DNA of 64,000 nt from Candidatus Moraniibacteriota bacterium (GTDB lineage Bacteria > Patescibacteriota > Minisyncoccia > Moranbacterales > UBA1568): positions 11,467 through 75,466 of the forward strand of contig JAHFON010000002.1 of NCBI GenBank assembly GCA_023261695.1, written 5' to 3'. Shown in pieces: positions 2,286 to 49,424 of this stretch. How positions within the stretch are numbered: the stretch's first letter is position 1; each line of letters opens with the position of its first letter. The translations under genes and the position numbers were made by a program. Under the pieces are notes generated by a model, which was given only the letters and a program-made list of their open reading frames with translations, did no database searches and was not told the DNA's origin.

Positions 2286-4979
2286 ATGGCATTACACAAA
2301 GATTTTCCCAAGGACCCATACGAAATACTTGACCCGAACATTCGGTGGTTTCCTGCTGACGAAGATTTGCGGGAAAAAGGGGCTATACAAAAACTCCTCC
2401 CTCCTCTTGTGGCTGGTTTGCGGGAAAAAGTGAAAGAATGGCGAGACAAAAACTACGAGGGAGCAAGCGATACTTCTAAATCACTTCTAAATTGGTGGTT
2501 TAAAGAGGAACATATTTTGTATGACCAGCACGGAACATCTTCTCATTTCAGATATTATTTTGCGCAAAGAGAAGCTCTGGAAACAGTCGTTTGGCTCTAT
2601 GAAGTTGCAAAAGTAAAGGACAAATATGATCTCATTCGTTACAACACGACTGGCGTGCTAAGCCCGCAAATGTTTACCGAGGAATGGCTTCGCTTTGTAA
2701 TAAAGATGGCGACAGGCGCAGGCAAGACTAAGGTGATGAGCTTAATAATCGCATGGGCGTATTTTCATAAAAAATATGAGGAAGATTCTAATTTGGCAAA
2801 GAATTTTCTTTTGATAACTCCGAATGTCATTGTTTTTGAAAGAATCAAAAATGACTTTGAGGGGTTAAAAATCTTTTTTAGCGATCCTGTTTTGCCGGAC
2901 AATGGGTATCGCGGACAAAACTGGCAGGATGATTTTCAAATGACTTTGCATTTGCAGGATGATTTGCGCAATGTCTCCGACACAGGAAATATATTTTTGA
3001 CCAATATCCACAGAGTTTTTGAGGGTGATGTACGAGACGCGAGCGCGGAAGATGAGGACACTTCGCGATATTTCTTGGGCGATAAGCCAGTTACGAAAAC
3101 AAGCGATTCTACTGTTGATCTCGGTATGATTGTGAGAGACATTGATGAATTGATTGTTATCAACGATGAAGCTCATCACTTGCACGATGACAAATCGGCT
3201 TGGGTTAAATCTATCACAGACATAGACAATAGATTGAAACAGAAAGGAACTGGACTATCTTTGCAAATTGATCTAACCGCTACTCCAAAAAAGAATGACG
3301 GCTCTATTTTTGTGCAGACAATTTCTGATTATCCGCTTGTTGAAGCAATACATCAGAGAGTTGTAAAAAATCCAGTTGTGCCAGACGCGGCGAGCCGGGG
3401 GAAACTGAAAGAAAATCAGAGCACTCTATTTAGCGAAAAATACAGGGATTATATAAATCTTGGCATTGAGGAATGGCAGAAAACATACGATGTACTGAAG
3501 CCGATGGGTAAAAAATCCATTCTTTTCATAATGACGGACGATACAAAAAACTGCGATGAAGTAGCGGAATATATTGAAACAAGTTTTAAAAATCTGAAAG
3601 GCGCGGTTTTGACCATTCACACGAATAAAAGCGGAGAAATTTCTGAAAACGTGTCTGGTAAAAGCAAAGAAGAATTGGATTTGCTTAGAAAACAAGCAAA
3701 CGAAATTGATAGTTGGGAAAGCCCGTTTAAGGTGATCATTTCTGTGATGATGCTCAAGGAGGGTTGGGATGTAAAAAATGTAACAACGATTGTGGGATTG
3801 CGTCCTTATGCCGCCGATTCAAAAATTCTTCCCGAACAAACTCTTGGACGAGGGCTCCGCAGAATGTTTTTTGGTAGAGATGATGTTGAAGAATATGTGA
3901 GTGTCGTTGGAACTTCCGCTTTTATGGACTTTGTTGAGTCAATCAAGGGAGAGGGCGTTATTCTTGAGAAAAAAGCGATGGGAACAGGGGCTAAACCGAT
4001 TGCTCCGATGGTTATTGAAGTTGATAAGGATAATCCGAAAAAGGACATTGAGAAACTTGATATTGAGATTCCGGTGATGTCCCCAAGGATTCAAAGAGAA
4101 TATAAAAATCTTGCAGAATTGGATGTTTCTAAATTTGGAAATAAAAAAGTTAAGGTAAAAACTTTCTCCGAGGAGGAAAAGAGAGAAATTGTTTTTAAGG
4201 ATGTCGTTGATGAAAAAACTCACCACACAACAATACTTTCGGGCGATATTGAGCCCGATTATCAAAGTGTTGTCGGCTTTTTTGCGCAAGCAATAATGCG
4301 GGAACTGCGACTGTTCGGTTGCTATGACATTTTGTTCGGCAAAGTAAGAGAATTTGTGCAGAGTAATATGTTTGATAGCAGAGTGGACTTGTCAGACCTC
4401 AATATTTTAAGAAACTTGTCGGAAGTTGAGTATATTCGGCTTATAAAAGATTCTTTCAAGAAAGCCATTAATGATCTTACGGTCGAAGATAAAGGAGATA
4501 CAGAGATAAAAAATTATATAAAAATAAGCGAAGCGCGTCCTTTTGTCGTCAATGATAAGTCGTACTTGATACCTAAAAAATCTGTTTTCAATAAGATTGT
4601 AGGAGATAGTGATTTTGAGTTGGTATTTTCTGACTTTCTTGAGAATTGTGAGGATGTAATTTCTTTTGCAAAAAACTTTCAAAATAAGGAAGCGGGTGCG
4701 CTTAGAATTGAATATAAAAATTCAGAGGGATTTATAGCTACCTATCACCCAGACTTTTTTGTTAAGAAAGATGAAAAAACCGTTTACATTATCGAGACAA
4801 AGGGGCGCGAAGAAGATGACGATAAATTAAAATTTGAAAGACTGCAAAAGTGGTGTGAGGACGTGAACGATCGACAAAGCAGAGTCATCTACAAAGCCCT
4901 ATATATAAAACAGGAAGAATGGGAGAAGGACAAGCTCAAAAACTTTGATGAAGTTATCAGAGTATTTAGCAAAAAATAA
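2286..4979 (+). CDS. res: Type III restriction endonuclease Res subunit (SF2 DEAH helicase + C-terminal PD-(D/E)xK nuclease)
   Basis: Walker A-like AGKT and the DEAH box VINDEAHHL are present. A C-terminal PD...E.K motif (HPDFFV...YIIETKG) is present. The N-terminal LDPNIRWFP-type leader is typical of ResIII proteins. Length 897 aa. Confidence 0.7.
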   Translation: MALHKDFPKDPYEILDPNIRWFPADEDLREKGAIQKLLPPLVAGLREKVKEWRDKNYEGASDTSKSLLNWWFKEEHILYDQHGTSSHFRYYFAQREALETVVWLYEVAKVKDKYDLIRYNTTGVLSPQMFTEEWLRFVIKMATGAGKTKVMSLIIAWAYFHKKYEEDSNLAKNFLLITPNVIVFERIKNDFEGLKIFFSDPVLPDNGYRGQNWQDDFQMTLHLQDDLRNVSDTGNIFLTNIHRVFEGDVRDASAEDEDTSRYFLGDKPVTKTSDSTVDLGMIVRDIDELIVINDEAHHLHDDKSAWVKSITDIDNRLKQKGTGLSLQIDLTATPKKNDGSIFVQTISDYPLVEAIHQRVVKNPVVPDAASRGKLKENQSTLFSEKYRDYINLGIEEWQKTYDVLKPMGKKSILFIMTDDTKNCDEVAEYIETSFKNLKGAVLTIHTNKSGEISENVSGKSKEELDLLRKQANEIDSWESPFKVIISVMMLKEGWDVKNVTTIVGLRPYAADSKILPEQTLGRGLRRMFFGRDDVEEYVSVVGTSAFMDFVESIKGEGVILEKKAMGTGAKPIAPMVIEVDKDNPKKDIEKLDIEIPVMSPRIQREYKNLAELDVSKFGNKKVKVKTFSEEEKREIVFKDVVDEKTHHTTILSGDIEPDYQSVVGFFAQAIMRELRLFGCYDILFGKVREFVQSNMFDSRVDLSDLNILRNLSEVEYIRLIKDSFKKAINDLTVEDKGDTEIKNYIKISEARPFVVNDKSYLIPKKSVFNKIVGDSDFELVFSDFLENCEDVISFAKNFQNKEAGALRIEYKNSEGFIATYHPDFFVKKDEKTVYIIETKGREEDDDKLKFERLQKWCEDVNDRQSRVIYKALYIKQEEWEKDKLKNFDEVIRVFSKK

Positions 4980-42199: not shown

Positions 42200-43051
42200 A
42201 TGAAAAAAAATAAACCAAAAAATTTAGCGATTTTTGAAGGCAAAAGAGTGCGGCGGATTTGGGATGAGAAAAAGGAAATGTGGTATTTCTCTGTAGTGGA
42301 TATTGTGCAAGTTTTAACCGATCAGCCGAATTATCAATTAGCGAGAAATTATTGGAAAGTGCTAAAAAATCGCTTAAATAAAGAAGGGAGTGAAACGGTT
42401 ACAAAATGTAACCGGTTGAAAATGGAAGCAGAGGACGGAAAATTAAGAGAAACAGATACGGCTGATGTTGAAACATTATTACGCCTAATTCAATCTGTTC
42501 CCAGCCCAAAAGCCGAGCCGATTAAGTTATGGCTTGCCAAAGTCGGTTATGAAAGGATACAGGAAATAAATGATCCGGAAAAAGCACTCAATCGTAGCCG
42601 CGAATACTGGCAAAAAATGGGGCGAAGCGAGAAGTGGATTCAGCAAAGGATGATGGGGCAGGAGATACGGAATAAATTGACGGATTATTGGAAAAATAAT
42701 GAAGTTAAAGAGCAAAGTAAATACGCGATTTTGACGAATATAATCCATCAGGAATGGAGCGATATTTCAGTGAAAGAACATAAAAATTTGAAAAGCTTGA
42801 AAACGGAAAATCTGCGCGATCATATGACGGACGCGGAGCTGGTTTTTACGGCATTGGCGGAATTGTCCACGCGCCAAATCGCCGAAACAATGAAGGCAAA
42901 AGGTTTTGAAGAAAACAAGATTCCTGCCAAAAAAGGCGGAGCGGTTGCCAAGAATGCCAGACTGGAATTGGAGCAAAAGACCGGCAAAAAAATCGTGAGC
43001 GGCGGTAATTTCAAATCATTGCGAGAGCATAAGAAATTAAAAGGCAAATAG
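42200..43051 (+). CDS. DinD-like / Bro-N domain protein (DNA-damage-inducible protein D family)
   Basis: The N-terminal Bro-N-like region (KRVRRIWDEKKEMWYFSVVDIVQVL) and the C-terminal KNLKSL...TELVFTALAELSTRQIAE...KGG pattern resemble E. coli DinD. Confidence 0.5.
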   Translation: MKKNKPKNLAIFEGKRVRRIWDEKKEMWYFSVVDIVQVLTDQPNYQLARNYWKVLKNRLNKEGSETVTKCNRLKMEAEDGKLRETDTADVETLLRLIQSVPSPKAEPIKLWLAKVGYERIQEINDPEKALNRSREYWQKMGRSEKWIQQRMMGQEIRNKLTDYWKNNEVKEQSKYAILTNIIHQEWSDISVKEHKNLKSLKTENLRDHMTDAELVFTALAELSTRQIAETMKAKGFEENKIPAKKGGAVAKNARLELEQKTGKKIVSGGNFKSLREHKKLKGK

Positions 43052-43859: not shown

Positions 43860-43933
43860 GCGGGAGTAGCACAATGGTAGTGCACCTGCCTTCCAAGCAG
43901 GGTACGCGGGTTCGATTCCCGTCTCTCGCTCCA
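43860..43933 (+). tRNA. tRNA-Gly (anticodon TCC) with encoded CCA
   Basis: Hand-folded. Acceptor GCGGGAG/CTCTCGC (one G-T pair), anticodon stem CCTGC/GCAGG with loop CTTCCAA, T-arm CGGGTTCGATTCCCG, 3' TCCA. Confidence 0.8.
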
Positions 43934-43936
43934 TAA

Positions 43937-43973
43937 AAACACAGGAGTCCCGCTAAGGACTCCTGTGTTTTAT
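43937..43973 (+). terminator. rho-independent terminator after tRNA-Gly (aacacaggagtcc...ggactcctgtgtt + TTATT)
   Basis: A 13-bp perfect stem. Confidence 0.6.
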
Positions 43974-44245
43974 TGAGCTCAATTCTAAATTTTGCACGAA
44001 CCTACTACGAACGGGAAACTGACCTCGAAAGCGGAAGTTGTTTCGCTGCCGCTCGTCACCCAAAAGAAAAGTTTTGTTCGCTTTTTCTGATGGGCGCGCG
44101 CCCGAGTTTTCTTTCAAAAAGGAAAAGTCAGTTTTTCTGGACTGTTCTGCTCTTTGGAGCAGAGTGGCGTGGCCGTCTGCTTATTCCAGTATACCAGAAT
44201 ATCTAAAGTTTAGATATTTACTTTCCGTATATATGCTGATAGTAT

Positions 44246-44467
44246 ATGGACAAGACAATACAGACAAAAGAATACGCACGATTTATCGAGAAATTGCACA
44301 AAGCAAGGCTTGAGGCTAGTTTGAAACAGATCGAGGTTGCCAAGAAGCTCAAGCGTCCGCAATCCTATATTTCTCGCGTGGAATCCGGGGAGTATCGTCT
44401 TGATATTCTTGAGGTGAAGCGATTTGCAAAGATTTATGGAAAGAGCGTTGATTATTTTGTGAAGTAG
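44246..44467 (+). CDS. XRE-family helix-turn-helix transcriptional regulator
   Basis: HTH_3 pattern LKQIEVAKKLKRPQSYISRVESGE. 73 aa. Confidence 0.75.
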   Translation: MDKTIQTKEYARFIEKLHKARLEASLKQIEVAKKLKRPQSYISRVESGEYRLDILEVKRFAKIYGKSVDYFVK

Positions 44468-44468
44468 C

Positions 44469-45110
44469 ATGATTACAAAAGTCATCACAGATAAGGATGG
44501 TGAAAGATACATAGGTATCTGTAATCACTGCGGTAATAATACTTCTCAAAAAGTATTGTTTACACATATTGGGTCTGAAATCGCATATATACCAAATGGG
44601 GATGAAGTCAGTTTTGAAGTTGAATATCGACTCACAGAATGTGGGACTTGCGAAAATATATCGCTTTATGGAAAACCGGAATTTGATGATCATCTCTTCG
44701 GTCACGTGCTCTATCCACGACAAAGTAATTTATCAAGTTCTATCCCTGCAGAGATACGCAAAGTCTATGATGAAGCAAAATTAATATCAAAATTAGCCCC
44801 GAATGCCTTTGCAGTCCAGATTCGCCGCGCGCTGGAATTTCTTTGTAAGGATAAAAAAATAAGTGGGAAGAATTTAAGTGGACAACTAAAGGAGATGGCT
44901 AAACAGGGATTGATTCCACCTATCTTGGCAACGATGACTGATGGCATTCGTATCTTAGGTAATATTGGAGCACATGCCTCTAACATGGGGGTTAAATCAG
45001 AGGATATCTCTCTTATAGATGATTTTTTCAAAGCGATTTTAGAGTATGTTTATGTAGCCCCAAACAAGATAGAGGTTTTTAAGAAGCGTTTGGGCGAAAT
45101 AAAGAAGTAG
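44469..45110 (+). CDS. DUF4145-domain protein with N-terminal Cys4 zinc-ribbon-like region
   Basis: C-terminal IRRALEFLCKD...ILGNIGAHAS resembles DUF4145. N-terminal C..C(x~35)C..C. The start is 2 nt after the XRE stop codon. Confidence 0.5.
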   Translation: MITKVITDKDGERYIGICNHCGNNTSQKVLFTHIGSEIAYIPNGDEVSFEVEYRLTECGTCENISLYGKPEFDDHLFGHVLYPRQSNLSSSIPAEIRKVYDEAKLISKLAPNAFAVQIRRALEFLCKDKKISGKNLSGQLKEMAKQGLIPPILATMTDGIRILGNIGAHASNMGVKSEDISLIDDFFKAILEYVYVAPNKIEVFKKRLGEIKK

Positions 45111-45151: not shown

Positions 45152-45352
45152 ATGAGCGAACCATATACTTTCAAAAGTTTTCTCGGTCGGAATTGGTGGT
45201 TTCTTGTTATTGGGCTTTTTAGTGCCCTACGACAATCACAAAGAGAAAGTGTTTCAGGATCTATTGTGTTAGATGCGCTTTTTGGTGAGGGAATTATTTT
45301 GGTGATGATGTTTGCTTATTGGTTTGTTAGGTATGGCAGAAAATTAGAATAA
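45152..45352 (+). CDS. hypothetical small two-TM protein
   Basis: ORF with two hydrophobic helices. Confidence 0.3.
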   Translation: MSEPYTFKSFLGRNWWFLVIGLFSALRQSQRESVSGSIVLDALFGEGIILVMMFAYWFVRYGRKLE

Positions 45353-45356
45353 TTAT

Positions 45357-46019
45357 ATGGGGCTATTCAACTTTAACAGCTACAATCAGATTGAACAGGG
45401 ATTGTTAGACATATATTCTTTAATGTTGACAGCAAGTGGTATTGATAAAGAAGAGGCGAAAAAAATGATTGAGGATATGCTTAACACAGCTATCGAGCAA
45501 TCCAAAAAAGGGGGAAACTATTTTCTTCCTCAAAATTTAGGGAGCATTATTGTGGGGGAAGCCGAAACGGACGATCAGGGTATACAGAAATATACGCAAG
45601 CTCTTAGAGAAAGGATGCCCCAGAATGAGGGAATAAGCTTAGATGATATACGGATGTGGTGGAATTTGAATGATGTGGAGCGTCGTATGATACAAATGCA
45701 GGACATGGCTACGAAATCAACAGCGATGTTCGGATTTTTGAAATCAGGAATGGCTTCTAGCCCAGAGCAAGCAATTGCTATGGTTTGTAAAATTCATCCA
45801 GTCTACGGAAACCCGAATGACAATAGTCAGAGCAGTGGGGATGATCGGCCACTACCTTACGAGCTGAAAGATAGAATAAATATTTACATTCAAAAAAGGT
45901 CGGTCAAGGTTCGGAAGAGTACAAAAAAGAAATGGAGCAGTCATCCTCTTTCAATGCCTTGGTTCGAAAAGAAATTAGAAATGATAATTTATGATTGGTG
46001 GAAAAATAAACATTATTGA
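45357..46019 (+). CDS. hypothetical protein
   Basis: ORF track. 5-nt gap from the previous ORF. Confidence 0.4.
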   Translation: MGLFNFNSYNQIEQGLLDIYSLMLTASGIDKEEAKKMIEDMLNTAIEQSKKGGNYFLPQNLGSIIVGEAETDDQGIQKYTQALRERMPQNEGISLDDIRMWWNLNDVERRMIQMQDMATKSTAMFGFLKSGMASSPEQAIAMVCKIHPVYGNPNDNSQSSGDDRPLPYELKDRINIYIQKRSVKVRKSTKKKWSSHPLSMPWFEKKLEMIIYDWWKNKHY

Positions 46020-46135
46020 AGTACCTATTTGGATTATCGGCTGTGTTATTGCTTACAAAACAGACCTTTTTAAATTGGATGGGGCTTTTGGTATAGGAAA
46101 TAAAAAGGTATAACAACTCAAAATTTCAAAAATAT

Positions 46136-46858
46136 ATGAAAAAATGTCCATTTTGTGCAGAAGAAATTCAAGATAATGCTAAAAAATGCAGGTATTGTGG
46201 AGAATGGATTACAGCTCAATTGGGTAATAGTGATGATAAAGAAAAAACCAGTGACAGAGAAGTTAGGAAGTTAAATAAAGAATTCGTTTTTTGGAAAACT
46301 TTTGTGTGGTCAACGCTGGTTGTAGCGGTTATTTTTGTGATTCTGTTTGGATTTATTGGTGAACTTAAGAATGATACTACAGATGCATTACTTGGAATTT
46401 TAATTATTTCTGGGCTTATAGGGGTGTTAATTACTTTTATCATCAAGGGTCTTAGGGGTGGGAAAAAAGAGGATGGTCTCGAATTAACTACTGAAGAAAT
46501 TTCTAAATATAACGGACTTGCAGGCTGGCTTTTTTTGGTTGCACTTGGATTAGTTATAAGTTTTTTTAGAATTTCTTCAAATGTTTCTATGCTGAATGGT
46601 AGTATCGATAAGGTATTTAATGGGATTTTCGCAATATTTATTGCTTATGTTTTGTATCTATTCTTTGCTAAGAAAAAGAAGTTTAAGCCATTTTTTATTG
46701 CGTTTATTGTTATTAATTTATTATTTGCGACACTAGCTGTTATTACAGATAATAGTGGTGAAATAATGAAGGATTTTTTTGCATCAATAGTTTCTTTGAT
46801 GATCTGGATTCCATATATAATTAAATCAAAGCGAGTCAGGGCAACTTTTATAGAATAA
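46136..46858 (+). CDS. membrane protein with N-terminal zinc-ribbon (CPFC...CRYC) and four TM helices
   Basis: MKKCPFCAEEIQDNAKKCRYCGEW followed by hydrophobic helices. Confidence 0.5.
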   Translation: MKKCPFCAEEIQDNAKKCRYCGEWITAQLGNSDDKEKTSDREVRKLNKEFVFWKTFVWSTLVVAVIFVILFGFIGELKNDTTDALLGILIISGLIGVLITFIIKGLRGGKKEDGLELTTEEISKYNGLAGWLFLVALGLVISFFRISSNVSMLNGSIDKVFNGIFAIFIAYVLYLFFAKKKKFKPFFIAFIVINLLFATLAVITDNSGEIMKDFFASIVSLMIWIPYIIKSKRVRATFIE

Positions 46859-46888
46859 CTCGTTAGATTTTGAGGTAAAGTATTTATT

Positions 46889-47689
46889 ATGACAAATATA
46901 GCGCTAACGGCAGTAAAAAGGGTATTTAGAAATGCAGATGATGTGCAGAGCTTCTTCGATAATATGCTTAAAGCTACATTGACATATAAATTCAAAGAAC
47001 TAACCAAGGATAATCCCAAAGTATTGATAAATAGTAAAGATTTGACGGAGGCTATTTTTACGCTAACAGCCAAGGATAAAATTGAAATTTATAATCAGAC
47101 AATCAGCGGGTTAAGAATAAAGGAGCTTTTTATTGCAACAATTTATTTGAAGTATCTTGTATCCACTTTGAAAAAAGAGATTATTTTGGTAGCCTTTCCT
47201 TTTCAAGAAGAATACTACGATATTGCTTTCTTTGTTATAGAAGAAGCGACTTATGCTGTTTTGGGTAGTAAATTTCATATACCCGAAAATTCAACGGCTT
47301 ACTATATTCAAATCAAGGAGGATTTTGACTATGAAGAATACAAAAAATTCAATGAGTCAAATGAGCCTAAAAAATTTGATTCCCAAAAAATTAAAGATAC
47401 CGCTTCAAAATATACTGACGTCCTCGCTCTCTTTTTCAGCAGAAACTATGCCTTATTTGAATCAGGAAACATAACATCTTTTTTAGATAAGAACAGAAAT
47501 GTAGGAATTATTTTAATGCCGTCTTTGGCTAACCCAGAAATTGAATTAACAGGAGGAAAAGATAAGGGCAAAAAAATCCCACTGGATAAGGACAAATATA
47601 ACTTTCTATTGGAAACAGGGGGTAAAACTGTTCATATAAAATTCAGCGTTCCAAAATTTATGGAAAAAACTGATCCTCCTCAAAATTGA
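46889..47689 (+). CDS. hypothetical protein
   Basis: ORF track. Confidence 0.4.
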   Translation: MTNIALTAVKRVFRNADDVQSFFDNMLKATLTYKFKELTKDNPKVLINSKDLTEAIFTLTAKDKIEIYNQTISGLRIKELFIATIYLKYLVSTLKKEIILVAFPFQEEYYDIAFFVIEEATYAVLGSKFHIPENSTAYYIQIKEDFDYEEYKKFNESNEPKKFDSQKIKDTASKYTDVLALFFSRNYALFESGNITSFLDKNRNVGIILMPSLANPEIELTGGKDKGKKIPLDKDKYNFLLETGGKTVHIKFSVPKFMEKTDPPQN

Positions 47690-47822
47690 AAGCTCCGATT
47701 TTAACTATTGCCATATTTATGTTAAAATATGCATAAAGAAATAACCACTTGTTTGTGGCTGTATTTATTGACAAATCCATTGGATTTACATAAAATAAAA
47801 AACCAAACTTAATACAACTACT

Positions 47823-48308
47823 ATGTCTATTAAAAAAACAACCCATTCCGCGTTAGAAGTCGGCTTGTATTTTTTGTATTTAGCCAATCAGTCAGGAAAG
47901 AAAATTACCAATAAAAAAATGCAAAAGCTTGTTTATTATGCACAAGCTTGGTCTTTGGTTGTAAATAATAAGAAGCTTTTTGGGGATAAAATTGAAGCTT
48001 GGGTTCACGGTCCAGCTGTAAGAAGTTTATATGTCAAATATAAAGAATTTGGTTTCAATCCAATAATTAAGGAGATTGATCAACAAACAGCAGAAGTATT
48101 TTCAACAAAAGACAAAAAGCTTATAGATCAGGTATGGAGCTTGTATGGATCGCTGGACGCCGGATATCTTGAAATGCTTACTCACTCCGAAAGACCGTGG
48201 CAGGAAGCAAGAGAGGGACTTCAAAGTTCTGAAAGTTCAAGCAGCGAAATATCTACGAAGATAATGAAGGAGTTTTATTCCGAAAAGCTTCAAGAGGCTA
48301 AAAAGTAA
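47823..48308 (+). CDS. Panacea-domain (DUF4065, SocA/GepA-like) antitoxin-type protein
   Basis: MQKLVYYAQAWSLVVNNKKLFGDKIEAWVHGPAVRSLYVKYKEFG matches the DUF4065 consensus. Confidence 0.65.
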   Translation: MSIKKTTHSALEVGLYFLYLANQSGKKITNKKMQKLVYYAQAWSLVVNNKKLFGDKIEAWVHGPAVRSLYVKYKEFGFNPIIKEIDQQTAEVFSTKDKKLIDQVWSLYGSLDAGYLEMLTHSERPWQEAREGLQSSESSSSEISTKIMKEFYSEKLQEAKK

Positions 48309-48314
48309 AATTAT

Positions 48315-48755
48315 ATGGTAGATATACCTAATGAGGTAACTCAAATGCAAAATGACGGTGATATACCAAAGACTGTCGCAGAGTTACCACAAGATTCTGA
48401 TGTATCAGAAGTTGAACCCTATAAAATATCCTTTTCCAAATATAATAATAAGCTTTGCGAAATTTCTGAATTAGGAAAAAACAAGGGCAATAAGGCACTT
48501 ACCATTCTCAAAGAAATTGGAACAAAGGTATTTTCCAGGGCAGATTTCCAAAAACACAACATTCAAACAAAAGGAATTTCTTATGACGGAGCTTACAAGC
48601 CTCTTTATAGTAAGATTGCTGATGGCATAGAAATCAAGGAGCTTTTTTTACAAGGGACTGGTCGTATTTTTTATTTTGACATTGAACCGGAAAGAATGCT
48701 TTATATTGTTGCTATCAAGGAGAATCATTTTGAAACTGAAAAAGTAAGGCGATGA
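48315..48755 (+). CDS. putative RelE/HigB (Gp49-like) family toxin
   Basis: C-terminal QGTGRIFYFDIEPERMLYIVAIKENHFE resembles the HigB/Gp49 beta-strand core. Lies 6 nt downstream of the Panacea gene. Confidence 0.4.
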   Translation: MVDIPNEVTQMQNDGDIPKTVAELPQDSDVSEVEPYKISFSKYNNKLCEISELGKNKGNKALTILKEIGTKVFSRADFQKHNIQTKGISYDGAYKPLYSKIADGIEIKELFLQGTGRIFYFDIEPERMLYIVAIKENHFETEKVRR

Positions 48756-48923
48756 AAGTATTATGCTTGTGTACTTAAATTAAGGACATAAATGTATTCT
48801 CGCGTATTCATAAAGAAAGTTCTAACTTCCTCCACAGTCCGGCTCCATAAATAAAAAAATGGCTCCGCGGGACAGATGTCACACGCGGAGCCGGAACGGG
48901 GTTGACTGAGGACTTAACTTCGA

Positions 48924-49424
48924 TCAGAGAAAACGGCCGCGATAACGCGGTCTTTCGTCTTTGACGACAAGCCAGAGGCCGTTTTCGGCGGCCACTGACC
49001 AGCTCAATCCAGGTTTCCAAGTGCCGTCTTTATTACATAGGCAGGCTATACGGCGCACGCCGTTGTGGGACATCTCCCATTCTGATGTCCCAAAAAAGAC
49101 GAATTTCGCTTCCGGCCGGTTGTTATCCGGCACGGGAAATCTTTTTTGGAAGCTTTCCCAGGCTTGTCCTTCCAAAAGTCGCCCGCCCAATTTTTTGGCT
49201 TCCACTTGCGCTTGAGCGAGATTTGTGACGCCGAAATATTGCAACGTCACGTTTGTATATATAGACCGCCCCTCAAAGTAGGGGCCGATAAAAGCGCACT
49301 CGCCCTTGTTAATGCCCGCGAGTTCCGCCAGAACAGCTGGTTCTCTATAGATCACATCCAGCTGAAATTCCTCGCCGATCTTTGGCAGAAATGCGTGCCT
49401 GTGAGATTCAAGCAATTGTGTCAT
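48924..49424 (-). CDS. hypothetical protein in GC-rich patch
   Basis: ORF. Followed by a strong hairpin ggctccgcg...cgcggagcc at 48862-48897. Confidence 0.4.
   Translation of the reverse strand: MTQLLESHRHAFLPKIGEEFQLDVIYREPAVLAELAGINKGECAFIGPYFEGRSIYTNVTLQYFGVTNLAQAQVEAKKLGGRLLEGQAWESFQKRFPVPDNNRPEAKFVFFGTSEWEMSHNGVRRIACLCNKDGTWKPGLSWSVAAENGLWLVVKDERPRYRGRFL

Follow-up and report, generated by a model that had tools for sequence, protein, structure and literature searches.

Do four closely packed genes on one strand form a single system, or have they come to lie side by side independently? This question is raised by nucleotides 45152 to 47689 of a 64,000-nucleotide (nt) stretch of Candidatus Moraniibacteriota DNA (contig JAHFON010000002.1), which we analyzed as a whole and call the window. 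An original prediction, made from the sequence alone, had described this segment as a cluster of four genes that could constitute one multi-gene system, alone or together with the two genes at 44246-45110. We label the four adjacent open reading frames (ORFs), all on the forward strand, g1 (45152-45352, 66 amino acids, aa), g2 (45357-46019, 220 aa), g3 (46136-46858, 240 aa), and g4 (46889-47689, 266 aa). Their coordinates, strand, and small gaps were borne out, the intergenic distances being 4 nt (g1/g2), 116 nt (g2/g3), and 30 nt (g3/g4). Our analysis leads us to conclude that the region is probably a mosaic, tRNA-linked island of separately inherited genes and not one four-gene system.

All four ORFs are genuine coding genes, since identical copies were called by gene finders in two independent assemblies (L001, Logan SRR14366796; L002, ENA ERZ27279977) and each has relatives elsewhere. 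A further ORF of 40 aa in the g2-g3 spacer (45991-46113, forward strand), which overlaps the out-of-frame tail of the frameshifted g2, was called in both assemblies as well; we regard it as a doubtful gene.

The four genes lie within a low-GC island of about 5 kb (approximately 43.9 to 48.9 kb of the window) that is placed between a tRNA-Gly and a conserved host gene encoding 418 aa. Following the tRNA, the island consists of an XRE-family regulator gene (XRE), a zinc-ribbon/DUF4145 gene resembling the RNase RAZR, g1, g2, g3, g4, a SocA/Panacea antitoxin gene, and a gene for a 146-aa probable toxin. The decisive case is a related genome (L093) that is syntenic with the window over iPGM, RNase Y, HU, tRNA-Pro, an FNR-like gene, and tRNA-Gly, at 72 to 78% nt identity. 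Between its tRNA-Gly and its homologue of the 418-aa gene, the sole gene is a g4 homologue (79% nt and 77% aa identity), and XRE, the RAZR-like gene, g1, g2, g3, and the toxin-antitoxin pair are all missing from this hotspot. What lies between tRNA-Gly and the 418-aa gene thus differs from one genome to the other, which makes this interval a variable hotspot.

The same separation was observed elsewhere. At no other locus does g4 occur together with g1, g2, or g3: relatives of these three genes were absent from all seven contexts of g4 homologues that we examined besides the window, including L093. When the genomes of 185,579 species were scanned by pattern, 61 loci encoding g2 homologues were recovered, and no relatives of g1, g3, g4, XRE, or the DUF4145 protein were found near them. 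The sole full-length homologue of g3 (P0135) is surrounded by small genes unrelated to g1, g2, and g4. Homologues of g2, g3, and g4 are thus scattered with no conserved adjacency, the pattern that the original prediction had itself set against a single system. The exception is g1: of its informative loci, 8 of 10 also carry XRE, and g2 follows it in 5 of 13 loci, XRE-g1 and g1-g2 being the only pairs that recur across loci. Nor is the set of four intact, g2 being frameshifted, or compositionally coherent: the GC content at third codon positions (GC3) is heterogeneous among g1 to g4 (0.23 to 0.41), while it ranges from 0.23 to 0.49 over the island genes as a whole and from 0.48 to 0.57 in the flanking host genes.

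These data bear directly on the proposal that g1 to g4, perhaps joined by XRE and the DUF4145 protein, constitute one new multi-gene antiphage system with g3 as its membrane effector. The shared strand, the short gaps, and the defense-like context speak for it, and zinc-ribbon membrane proteins are conceivable effectors in principle. However, the genes co-occur in no other genome, g4 stands alone at the same site in L093, g2 occurs without the others in 61 genomes and is frameshifted here, and the g3 homologue lies elsewhere; in addition, GC3 is heterogeneous, no PADLOC matches were obtained, and RAZR functions as a single gene. Because homologues of g2, g3, and g4 do not travel together, with g4 alone in L093, the four-gene system is unsupported; it is largely refuted by the distribution data, and we consider it extremely improbable. 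The mosaic verdict keeps a false "new four-gene defense system" out of the catalogues. In this tRNA-adjacent hotspot, tight same-strand spacing appears to reflect the accretion of unrelated cassettes, one of which is probably already decaying.

We propose that the tRNA-Gly hotspot accumulates at least five independently inherited modules. The first would be formed by XRE and the membrane mini-protein g1, the constant frame of cassette-like arrays, probably of Patescibacteria-type genomes, with variable genes between and after the two; XRE would control the g1-led unit, and the slot between XRE and g1 would here hold the RAZR-like RNase, acting alone. The second module, g2, a soluble all-alpha protein, occupies the first downstream position and is probably a decaying passenger of the g1 frame. 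The third would be g3, a near-orphan polytopic membrane protein with a zinc ribbon and a DUF2569 domain. As the fourth, the putative nuclease g4 would act alone as a single-gene defense or selfish element, and the fifth, the Panacea antitoxin-toxin pair, would likewise act alone, presumably from its own promoter.

The behavior of g4 as a gene-sized unit is apparent at the nucleotide level. When the window was compared with L003-L009 and L093, nt homology of the g4 copies was found to start 1 to 9 nt before the g4 start codon and to end before the stop codon, so that g4 behaves as a gene-sized unit; the homology to L003-L009 is confined to the g4 ORF. The contexts of the homologues are diverse. 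In L003-L009, g4 lies between an unknown 270-aa protein and Abi_C, in islands carrying either a type IIG restriction-modification gene and an integrase or an SNase. It follows three unknown genes near ribosomal genes in L010-L012, overlaps a lipoprotein-like gene and adjoins an integrase in L088-L090, lies between a helicase-PLD protein and HEPN_AbiU2 in L091, and comes after a trypsin-like protein in L094 and after an RNase H-like gene and an unknown 290-aa protein in L095 and L096.

Such contexts also allowed us to weigh whether g3 and g4 form a two-gene module, with g3 as membrane sensor or anchor and g4 as nuclease effector. The 30-nt gap and the nearly identical GC content of the two genes (0.31 and 0.32) fit this idea, as does the N-terminal hydrophobic segment of the protein encoded upstream of the g4 homologue in L088 (236 aa) and L091 (205 aa). 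Against it, the g4 homologue of L093 follows directly after the tRNA without a partner, the homology to the L003-L009 and L093 copies begins just ahead of the g4 start codon, and no g4 is present near the sole g3 homologue. The genes upstream of g4 homologues are, moreover, homologous neither to each other nor to g3, and on the same grounds a conserved hidden partner upstream of g4 was rejected. We thus regard a g3-g4 module as quite unlikely and retain the reading that the two genes were inherited separately.

What kind of protein does g4 encode? It has 13 close relatives, and 56 representatives of the family were recovered when 1.84 billion proteins were searched exhaustively by profile. In an alignment of 42 diverged members (A6), with a mean column identity of 25%, only F57, E79, D111, Q141, and K143 are invariant. 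The AlphaFold2 (AF2) model has an alpha-beta-beta-beta-alpha-beta core, in which E79 is placed on helix 74-91, D111 at the start of strand 112-118, and Q141 and K143 on strand 136-144. Fold matches to this model are weak, and the best ones are proteins of the restriction-endonuclease fold. Like members of the PD-(D/E)xK superfamily, g4 thus combines this modeled core with an invariant Glu on the first helix, an Asp at strand 2, and an x-K on strand 3, so that the conserved catalytic motif of the superfamily is present as a QxK variant. The statement of the original prediction that none of the four genes has a recognizable catalytic motif therefore fails for g4, where the family alignment brings out E79, D111, Q141, and K143. 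Taken together, alignment and model suggest that g4 is most likely a stand-alone, metal-dependent nuclease of the PD-(D/E)xK fold with an E...D...QxK signature.

Other features set g4 apart from this superfamily. The motif is noncanonical, a Gln replacing the second acidic residue, which counts against the assignment; profile searches of Pfam, PDB, and PADLOC linked g4 to no family; and no known counterpart exists for the helical N-terminal part, of 70 residues, or for the beta region at the C terminus. Neither the single protein nor the 42-member set matched Pfam, PADLOC, PHROG, NCBIfam, or PDB sequences. Judged by these searches, the g4 family is rare and undescribed. As a lead, this rare family, whose members have about 260 aa and a clear E/D/QxK signature and occur beside Abi and restriction genes, is a candidate for a single-gene nuclease defense.

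The product of g3 had been predicted to be a zinc-ribbon protein with four transmembrane segments. The ribbon and the predicted membrane character stand, while the hydropathy profile indicates about six hydrophobic segments instead of four. Its residues 160-239 match Pfam DUF2569 (PF10754; 69.8 bits versus a cutoff of 26.5; E = 4.3e-19), and the architecture is best described as a ribbon, two transmembrane segments, and DUF2569, which comprises the C-terminal four. The C-terminal four helices thus resemble those of DUF2569 proteins above the Pfam threshold. Unlike other DUF2569 proteins, however, g3 joins this domain to a ribbon and two transmembrane segments, a combination with one other example in 5.8 billion proteins. 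That example is P0135 (44% identity), the only full-length homologue among 32 matches; the other matches share the N-terminal ribbon only (CPFCAEEI...KCRYCGEW). This ribbon resembles that of TcaA, RDD, DUF805, and YdbS-type proteins, and ribbons of the g3 type are attached to many membrane domains, including RDD, DUF805, and YdbS-PH.

The original prediction had likened g3 to the membrane effectors of abortive-infection systems. This likeness was not upheld: PADLOC returned chance-level matches only (E = 0.014 to 0.017), and the same ribbon is found on many ordinary membrane domains. A role as an abortive-infection membrane effector is accordingly unsupported, as g3 showed no homology or linkage to known defense systems and its sole homologue lies among unrelated genes.

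In contrast to g2, g3, and g4, g1 has recurrent company. It has 13 relatives, all from metagenomes, with 61 to 67% identity, and the mean column identity of their alignment (A5) is 86%. Differences are about threefold more frequent at the third codon position than at the first two (0.29 versus 0.10), a substitution pattern from which purifying selection on g1 is evident. Described beforehand as a two-transmembrane mini-protein, g1 is a small hydrophobic protein, but hydropathy supports one full-length transmembrane segment and a short hydrophobic stretch of only 13 residues. In 8 of the 10 informative loci, a small XRE gene lies upstream of g1, either immediately adjacent or separated from it by a single variable gene; XRE was not found with g1 in L083 and L086. 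The gene downstream is a g2 homologue in 5 of the 13 loci and varies among unknown types in the others. In addition, the closest homologues of g2 (P0015 and P0016) carry an N-terminal extension that is an alternate-frame translation of the 3' end of g1, and g1 therefore lies upstream there too.

The XRE of the window itself is consistent with such an arrangement. This 73-aa helix-turn-helix regulator (44246-44467, forward strand; Pfam HTH_3, E = 5.8e-11) is 50% identical to the XRE encoded upstream of g1 in L078 and L079. Upstream of it, nucleotide comparison revealed a conserved noncoding stretch (44043-44153) that is about 75% identical to the DNA 5' of the XRE genes in L081 (1784-1870 and 5472-5558) and L078 (2760-2867) and that matched no Rfam family. 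We infer that the window XRE is a likely regulator of the g1 module. The two copies of the stretch in L081 belong to a perfect inverted repeat of 374 nt that flanks an XRE-g1-cargo module; this repeat may be an assembly artifact.

The downstream cargo of these arrays shares a short N-terminal tag. Among the ORFs of at least 100 aa in the g1 loci L075-L087, 14 of 67 start with MG(L/F/I)(F/L/G), compared with 35 of 921 elsewhere; most of the latter are probably g2 homologues (32 loci, not checked singly). About 10 of the 14 MG(L/F)F cargo ORFs, of approximately 170 to 220 aa, fall into four or more families that are not related to g2 and that matched neither Pfam nor PADLOC. That they are distant relatives of g2 was rejected, as hhalign aligns the first five residues only. 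Such arrays, whose cargo shares an MG(L/F)F tag, are a further lead of this work. In them, g1 would be the constant "anchor" of an XRE-g1-cargo order, and the window appears to fit this order, with XRE, a slot holding the RAZR-like gene, g1, and cargo starting from g2.

Two of the g1 loci contain other cargo. In L083, the array gene at 7813-8721 matches PADLOC PD-T7-5 and PD-T7-1 (E about 1e-20); g1 arrays can therefore hold known defense genes. In L084, a 51-aa fragment (2203-2358) repeats the N terminus of a PIG-L/LmbE-like gene (3430-4086), and the two flank a SocA-toxin pair. The presence of the duplicated fragment on both sides of the pair suggests that this toxin-antitoxin module was inserted into the PIG-L/LmbE-like gene with partial duplication.

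The linkage of XRE and g1 in 8 of 10 loci, together with the tiny size, hydrophobicity, and strong conservation of g1, raises another explanation: XRE and g1, possibly with g2, could be a toxin-antitoxin-like or abortive-infection pair in which g1 is a membrane-damaging toxin, XRE represses or neutralizes it, and the downstream genes are unrelated passengers. The surroundings are of the defense type (RAZR here, the PD-T7-5-like gene in L083, and the SocA pair in L084). However, a variable gene often separates XRE from g1, g1 occurs without XRE in L083 and L086, and the MG(L/F)F N terminus of the downstream genes suggests a functional tie to g1, which passengers would not have. We consider this explanation unlikely. 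A more far-reaching reading is that XRE-g1 provides the constant frame for a modular system, hitherto undescribed, of Patescibacteria-like bacteria, in which the partners of g1 are interchangeable soluble proteins of unrelated families with nothing in common but an MG(L/F)F(S/N) N terminus, g2 among them, and that g4 founds a family of QxK nucleases acting as single-gene defense or selfish elements. Taken as a whole, this reading is doubtful, and the mosaic island is the one we prefer.

Within the mosaic, g2 shows signs of decay. The family has 173 relatives and an N terminus of the form MG(L/F)F. Compared with these relatives, g2 of the window has lost 1 nt near position 45907, and the conserved C terminus of the family, GSEEYKKEMEQSSSFNALVRKEIRNDNL*, is readable at 45908-45994 but out of frame with g2. 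The same frameshifted 220-aa product is encoded in L001 and L002, so the deletion is common to both. Because the deletion removes the conserved C terminus, the g2 copy of the window is probably a decaying pseudogene or truncated variant.

The 61 g2 loci belong to Patescibacteria, Saccharibacteria, Methanoperedens, Planctomycetota, Acidobacteriota, WOR-3, and others. Clustering of the neighboring genes gave lineage-specific synteny only, and in Acidobacteriota and WOR-3 the neighbors are housekeeping genes (molybdopterin oxidoreductase, CoA-transferase, thiolase, NadA, and cytidylate kinase). The AF2 model of the family is all-alpha with a predicted local distance difference test (pLDDT) score of 92. 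It yielded no informative fold match in the PDB; a family profile search against PDB sequences gave no usable match, and no Pfam, PADLOC, PHROGs, or NCBIfam family was hit. g2 thus represents a widespread, confidently folded all-alpha family for which no structural relative was found. The g2 domain occurs fused to DUF805, to zinc ribbons, or to 2 to 6 transmembrane segments; the fusion partners include DUF805, double zinc ribbons, a six-segment membrane domain, and a family-2 glycosyltransferase (L063, 7602-8639; L064, 1861-3348; L043, 3712-5325; L041, 7089-8552), and in several closer relatives small membrane proteins are encoded upstream of the g2 homologue. Since membrane domains elsewhere often precede members of this family or are fused to them, g2 probably acts at the membrane with g1.

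On both sides, g1 to g4 are bordered by genes of known type. The upstream neighbor (44469-45110, forward strand) encodes a RAZR/PD-T7-4-like zinc-finger HEPN protein (Pfam DUF4145, E = 4.8e-18; PADLOC PD-T7-4, E = 6.8e-17). RAZR is a single-gene abortive-infection zinc-finger HEPN RNase (PMC13017515). Reading of the translation revealed a Cys4 ribbon (C18, C21, C58, and C61) and R151-x7-H159, so that the protein corresponds to RAZR as defined by an N-terminal Cys4 zinc ribbon and a DUF4145/HEPN domain with Arg and His. The R-x7-H spacing resembles R146/H154 of E. coli RAZR, and Cys4 ribbon and DUF4145 are common to both. The window protein is nevertheless distant from the E. coli protein, its RNase role is putative, and, unlike RAZR/PD-T7-4, its gene follows XRE after a 1-nt gap and is embedded in the XRE-g1 frame. 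By analogy, it may be a self-sufficient single-gene defense RNase that occupies the variable position separating XRE from g1. The suggestion that the cluster forms one system together with 44246-45110 is not supported: RAZR works as a single gene, homologues of g2 and g4 occur without XRE or DUF4145, and the link to XRE recurs with g1 only.

Downstream lies a 161-aa SocA/Panacea-domain antitoxin (47823-48308, forward strand; Pfam SocA_Panacea, E = 2.7e-22; phrog_1281, E = 1e-45), followed after a 6-nt gap by its probable cognate toxin of 146 aa (48315-48755, forward strand). Panacea-domain antitoxins and their toxins are a known two-gene toxin-antitoxin module (PMC8832971). As in the described PanA pairs (PMC8832971), the antitoxin precedes a small unrelated protein, and a promoter-like site lies ahead of the pair. 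This sigma-70-like site, TTGACA-17-TAAAAT (47768-47796, forward strand), agrees with the consensus at 11 of 12 positions and is the best match of the region, although a consensus match only. Unlike in those pairs, the 146-aa partner resembles none of the described toxin families; searches of Pfam, PADLOC, PHROGs, and NCBIfam gave nothing for it, and by eye its C terminus contains a candidate RelE/ParE-like motif. Because RAZR works as a single gene and the Panacea pair is a known two-gene module, both flanks of g1-g4 are, by analogy with these described systems, self-sufficient known modules. The surroundings are thus defense-like, with a homologue of RAZR/PD-T7-4 on one side and a Panacea toxin-antitoxin pair on the other.

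As to the borders of the island, its left end is the tRNA-Gly(TCC) (43860-43933, forward strand; ARAGORN; Rfam, 71 bits), one of two tRNAs that were the only hits of an Rfam scan of 41.8-49.6 kb. The right end carries a conserved 40-nt element (48809-48845), identified by nucleotide comparison, of which the window has one copy. An identical block lies just 3' of the Abi_C region in L003 (9874-9922) and L006-L009 (9596-9632), all of them islands carrying g4 homologues. The 3' end of the element overlaps a 10-mer, GCTCCATAAA, at 48842-48851 (both together, 48809-48851), and this 10-mer occurs in the window at this position and at the 3' end of tRNA-Gly (43928-43937) and nowhere else. In 3 of 100 shuffles, it occurred at least twice. 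A scan of IMG/VR with the 40-nt element returned no matches. On this thin evidence, element and 10-mer may be an att-like attachment or recombination site.

In several respects the region resembles a tRNA-flanked defense island or hotspot. It is adjacent to a tRNA, deviates in composition, varies in occupancy between relatives (window versus L093), and holds the RAZR-like and Panacea modules, and homologues of g4 elsewhere lie beside Abi_C, AbiU2, restriction-modification genes, and integrases. Unlike such islands, it contains no integrase or recombinase, and its ends consist of the 10-nt repeat and the shared 40-nt element. Its tRNA-adjacent position and low GC content, the Bro-N gene nearby, and the PHROG relatives of XRE, the DUF4145 protein, and SocA could also indicate a prophage remnant whose four genes are phage morons. 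However, the island is devoid of integrase, structural, and replication genes, and when all its proteins were searched against Pfam, PADLOC, PHROGs, and NCBIfam, g1, g2, and g4 gave no match. Furthermore, scans of 2.9 million IMG/VR contigs returned no relative of the families of these three genes, and a prophage origin is therefore unlikely in the extreme.

Several observations weigh against the mosaic reading. The comparison contigs are mostly short metagenome fragments, and the absence of partners covers the near neighborhood. g1 to g4 are co-directional and close, so they could be co-transcribed; g3 and g4 in particular are similar in GC content and lie 30 nt apart, and the rarity of g3 limits any test of their co-occurrence. 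As for the mode of acquisition, the 43.9- to 48.9-kb island lacks an integrase or recombinase, its ends are marked by a direct repeat of 10 nt only, and no att-type direct repeats or terminal inverted repeats longer than 26 nt surround it.

Two further differences from L093 were observed outside the island. Between the island and the 418-aa gene, the window carries a gene for a 166-aa protein (48924-49424, reverse strand) with host-like GC content (0.51) and no family match; it is absent from L093. A second variable slot follows tRNA-Pro (window, 42200-43051; L093, 3898-4920). In this slot, the window encodes a Bro-N protein matching the PADLOC candidate PDC-S13 (E = 8.5e-122), and L093 has a CofD-family gene.

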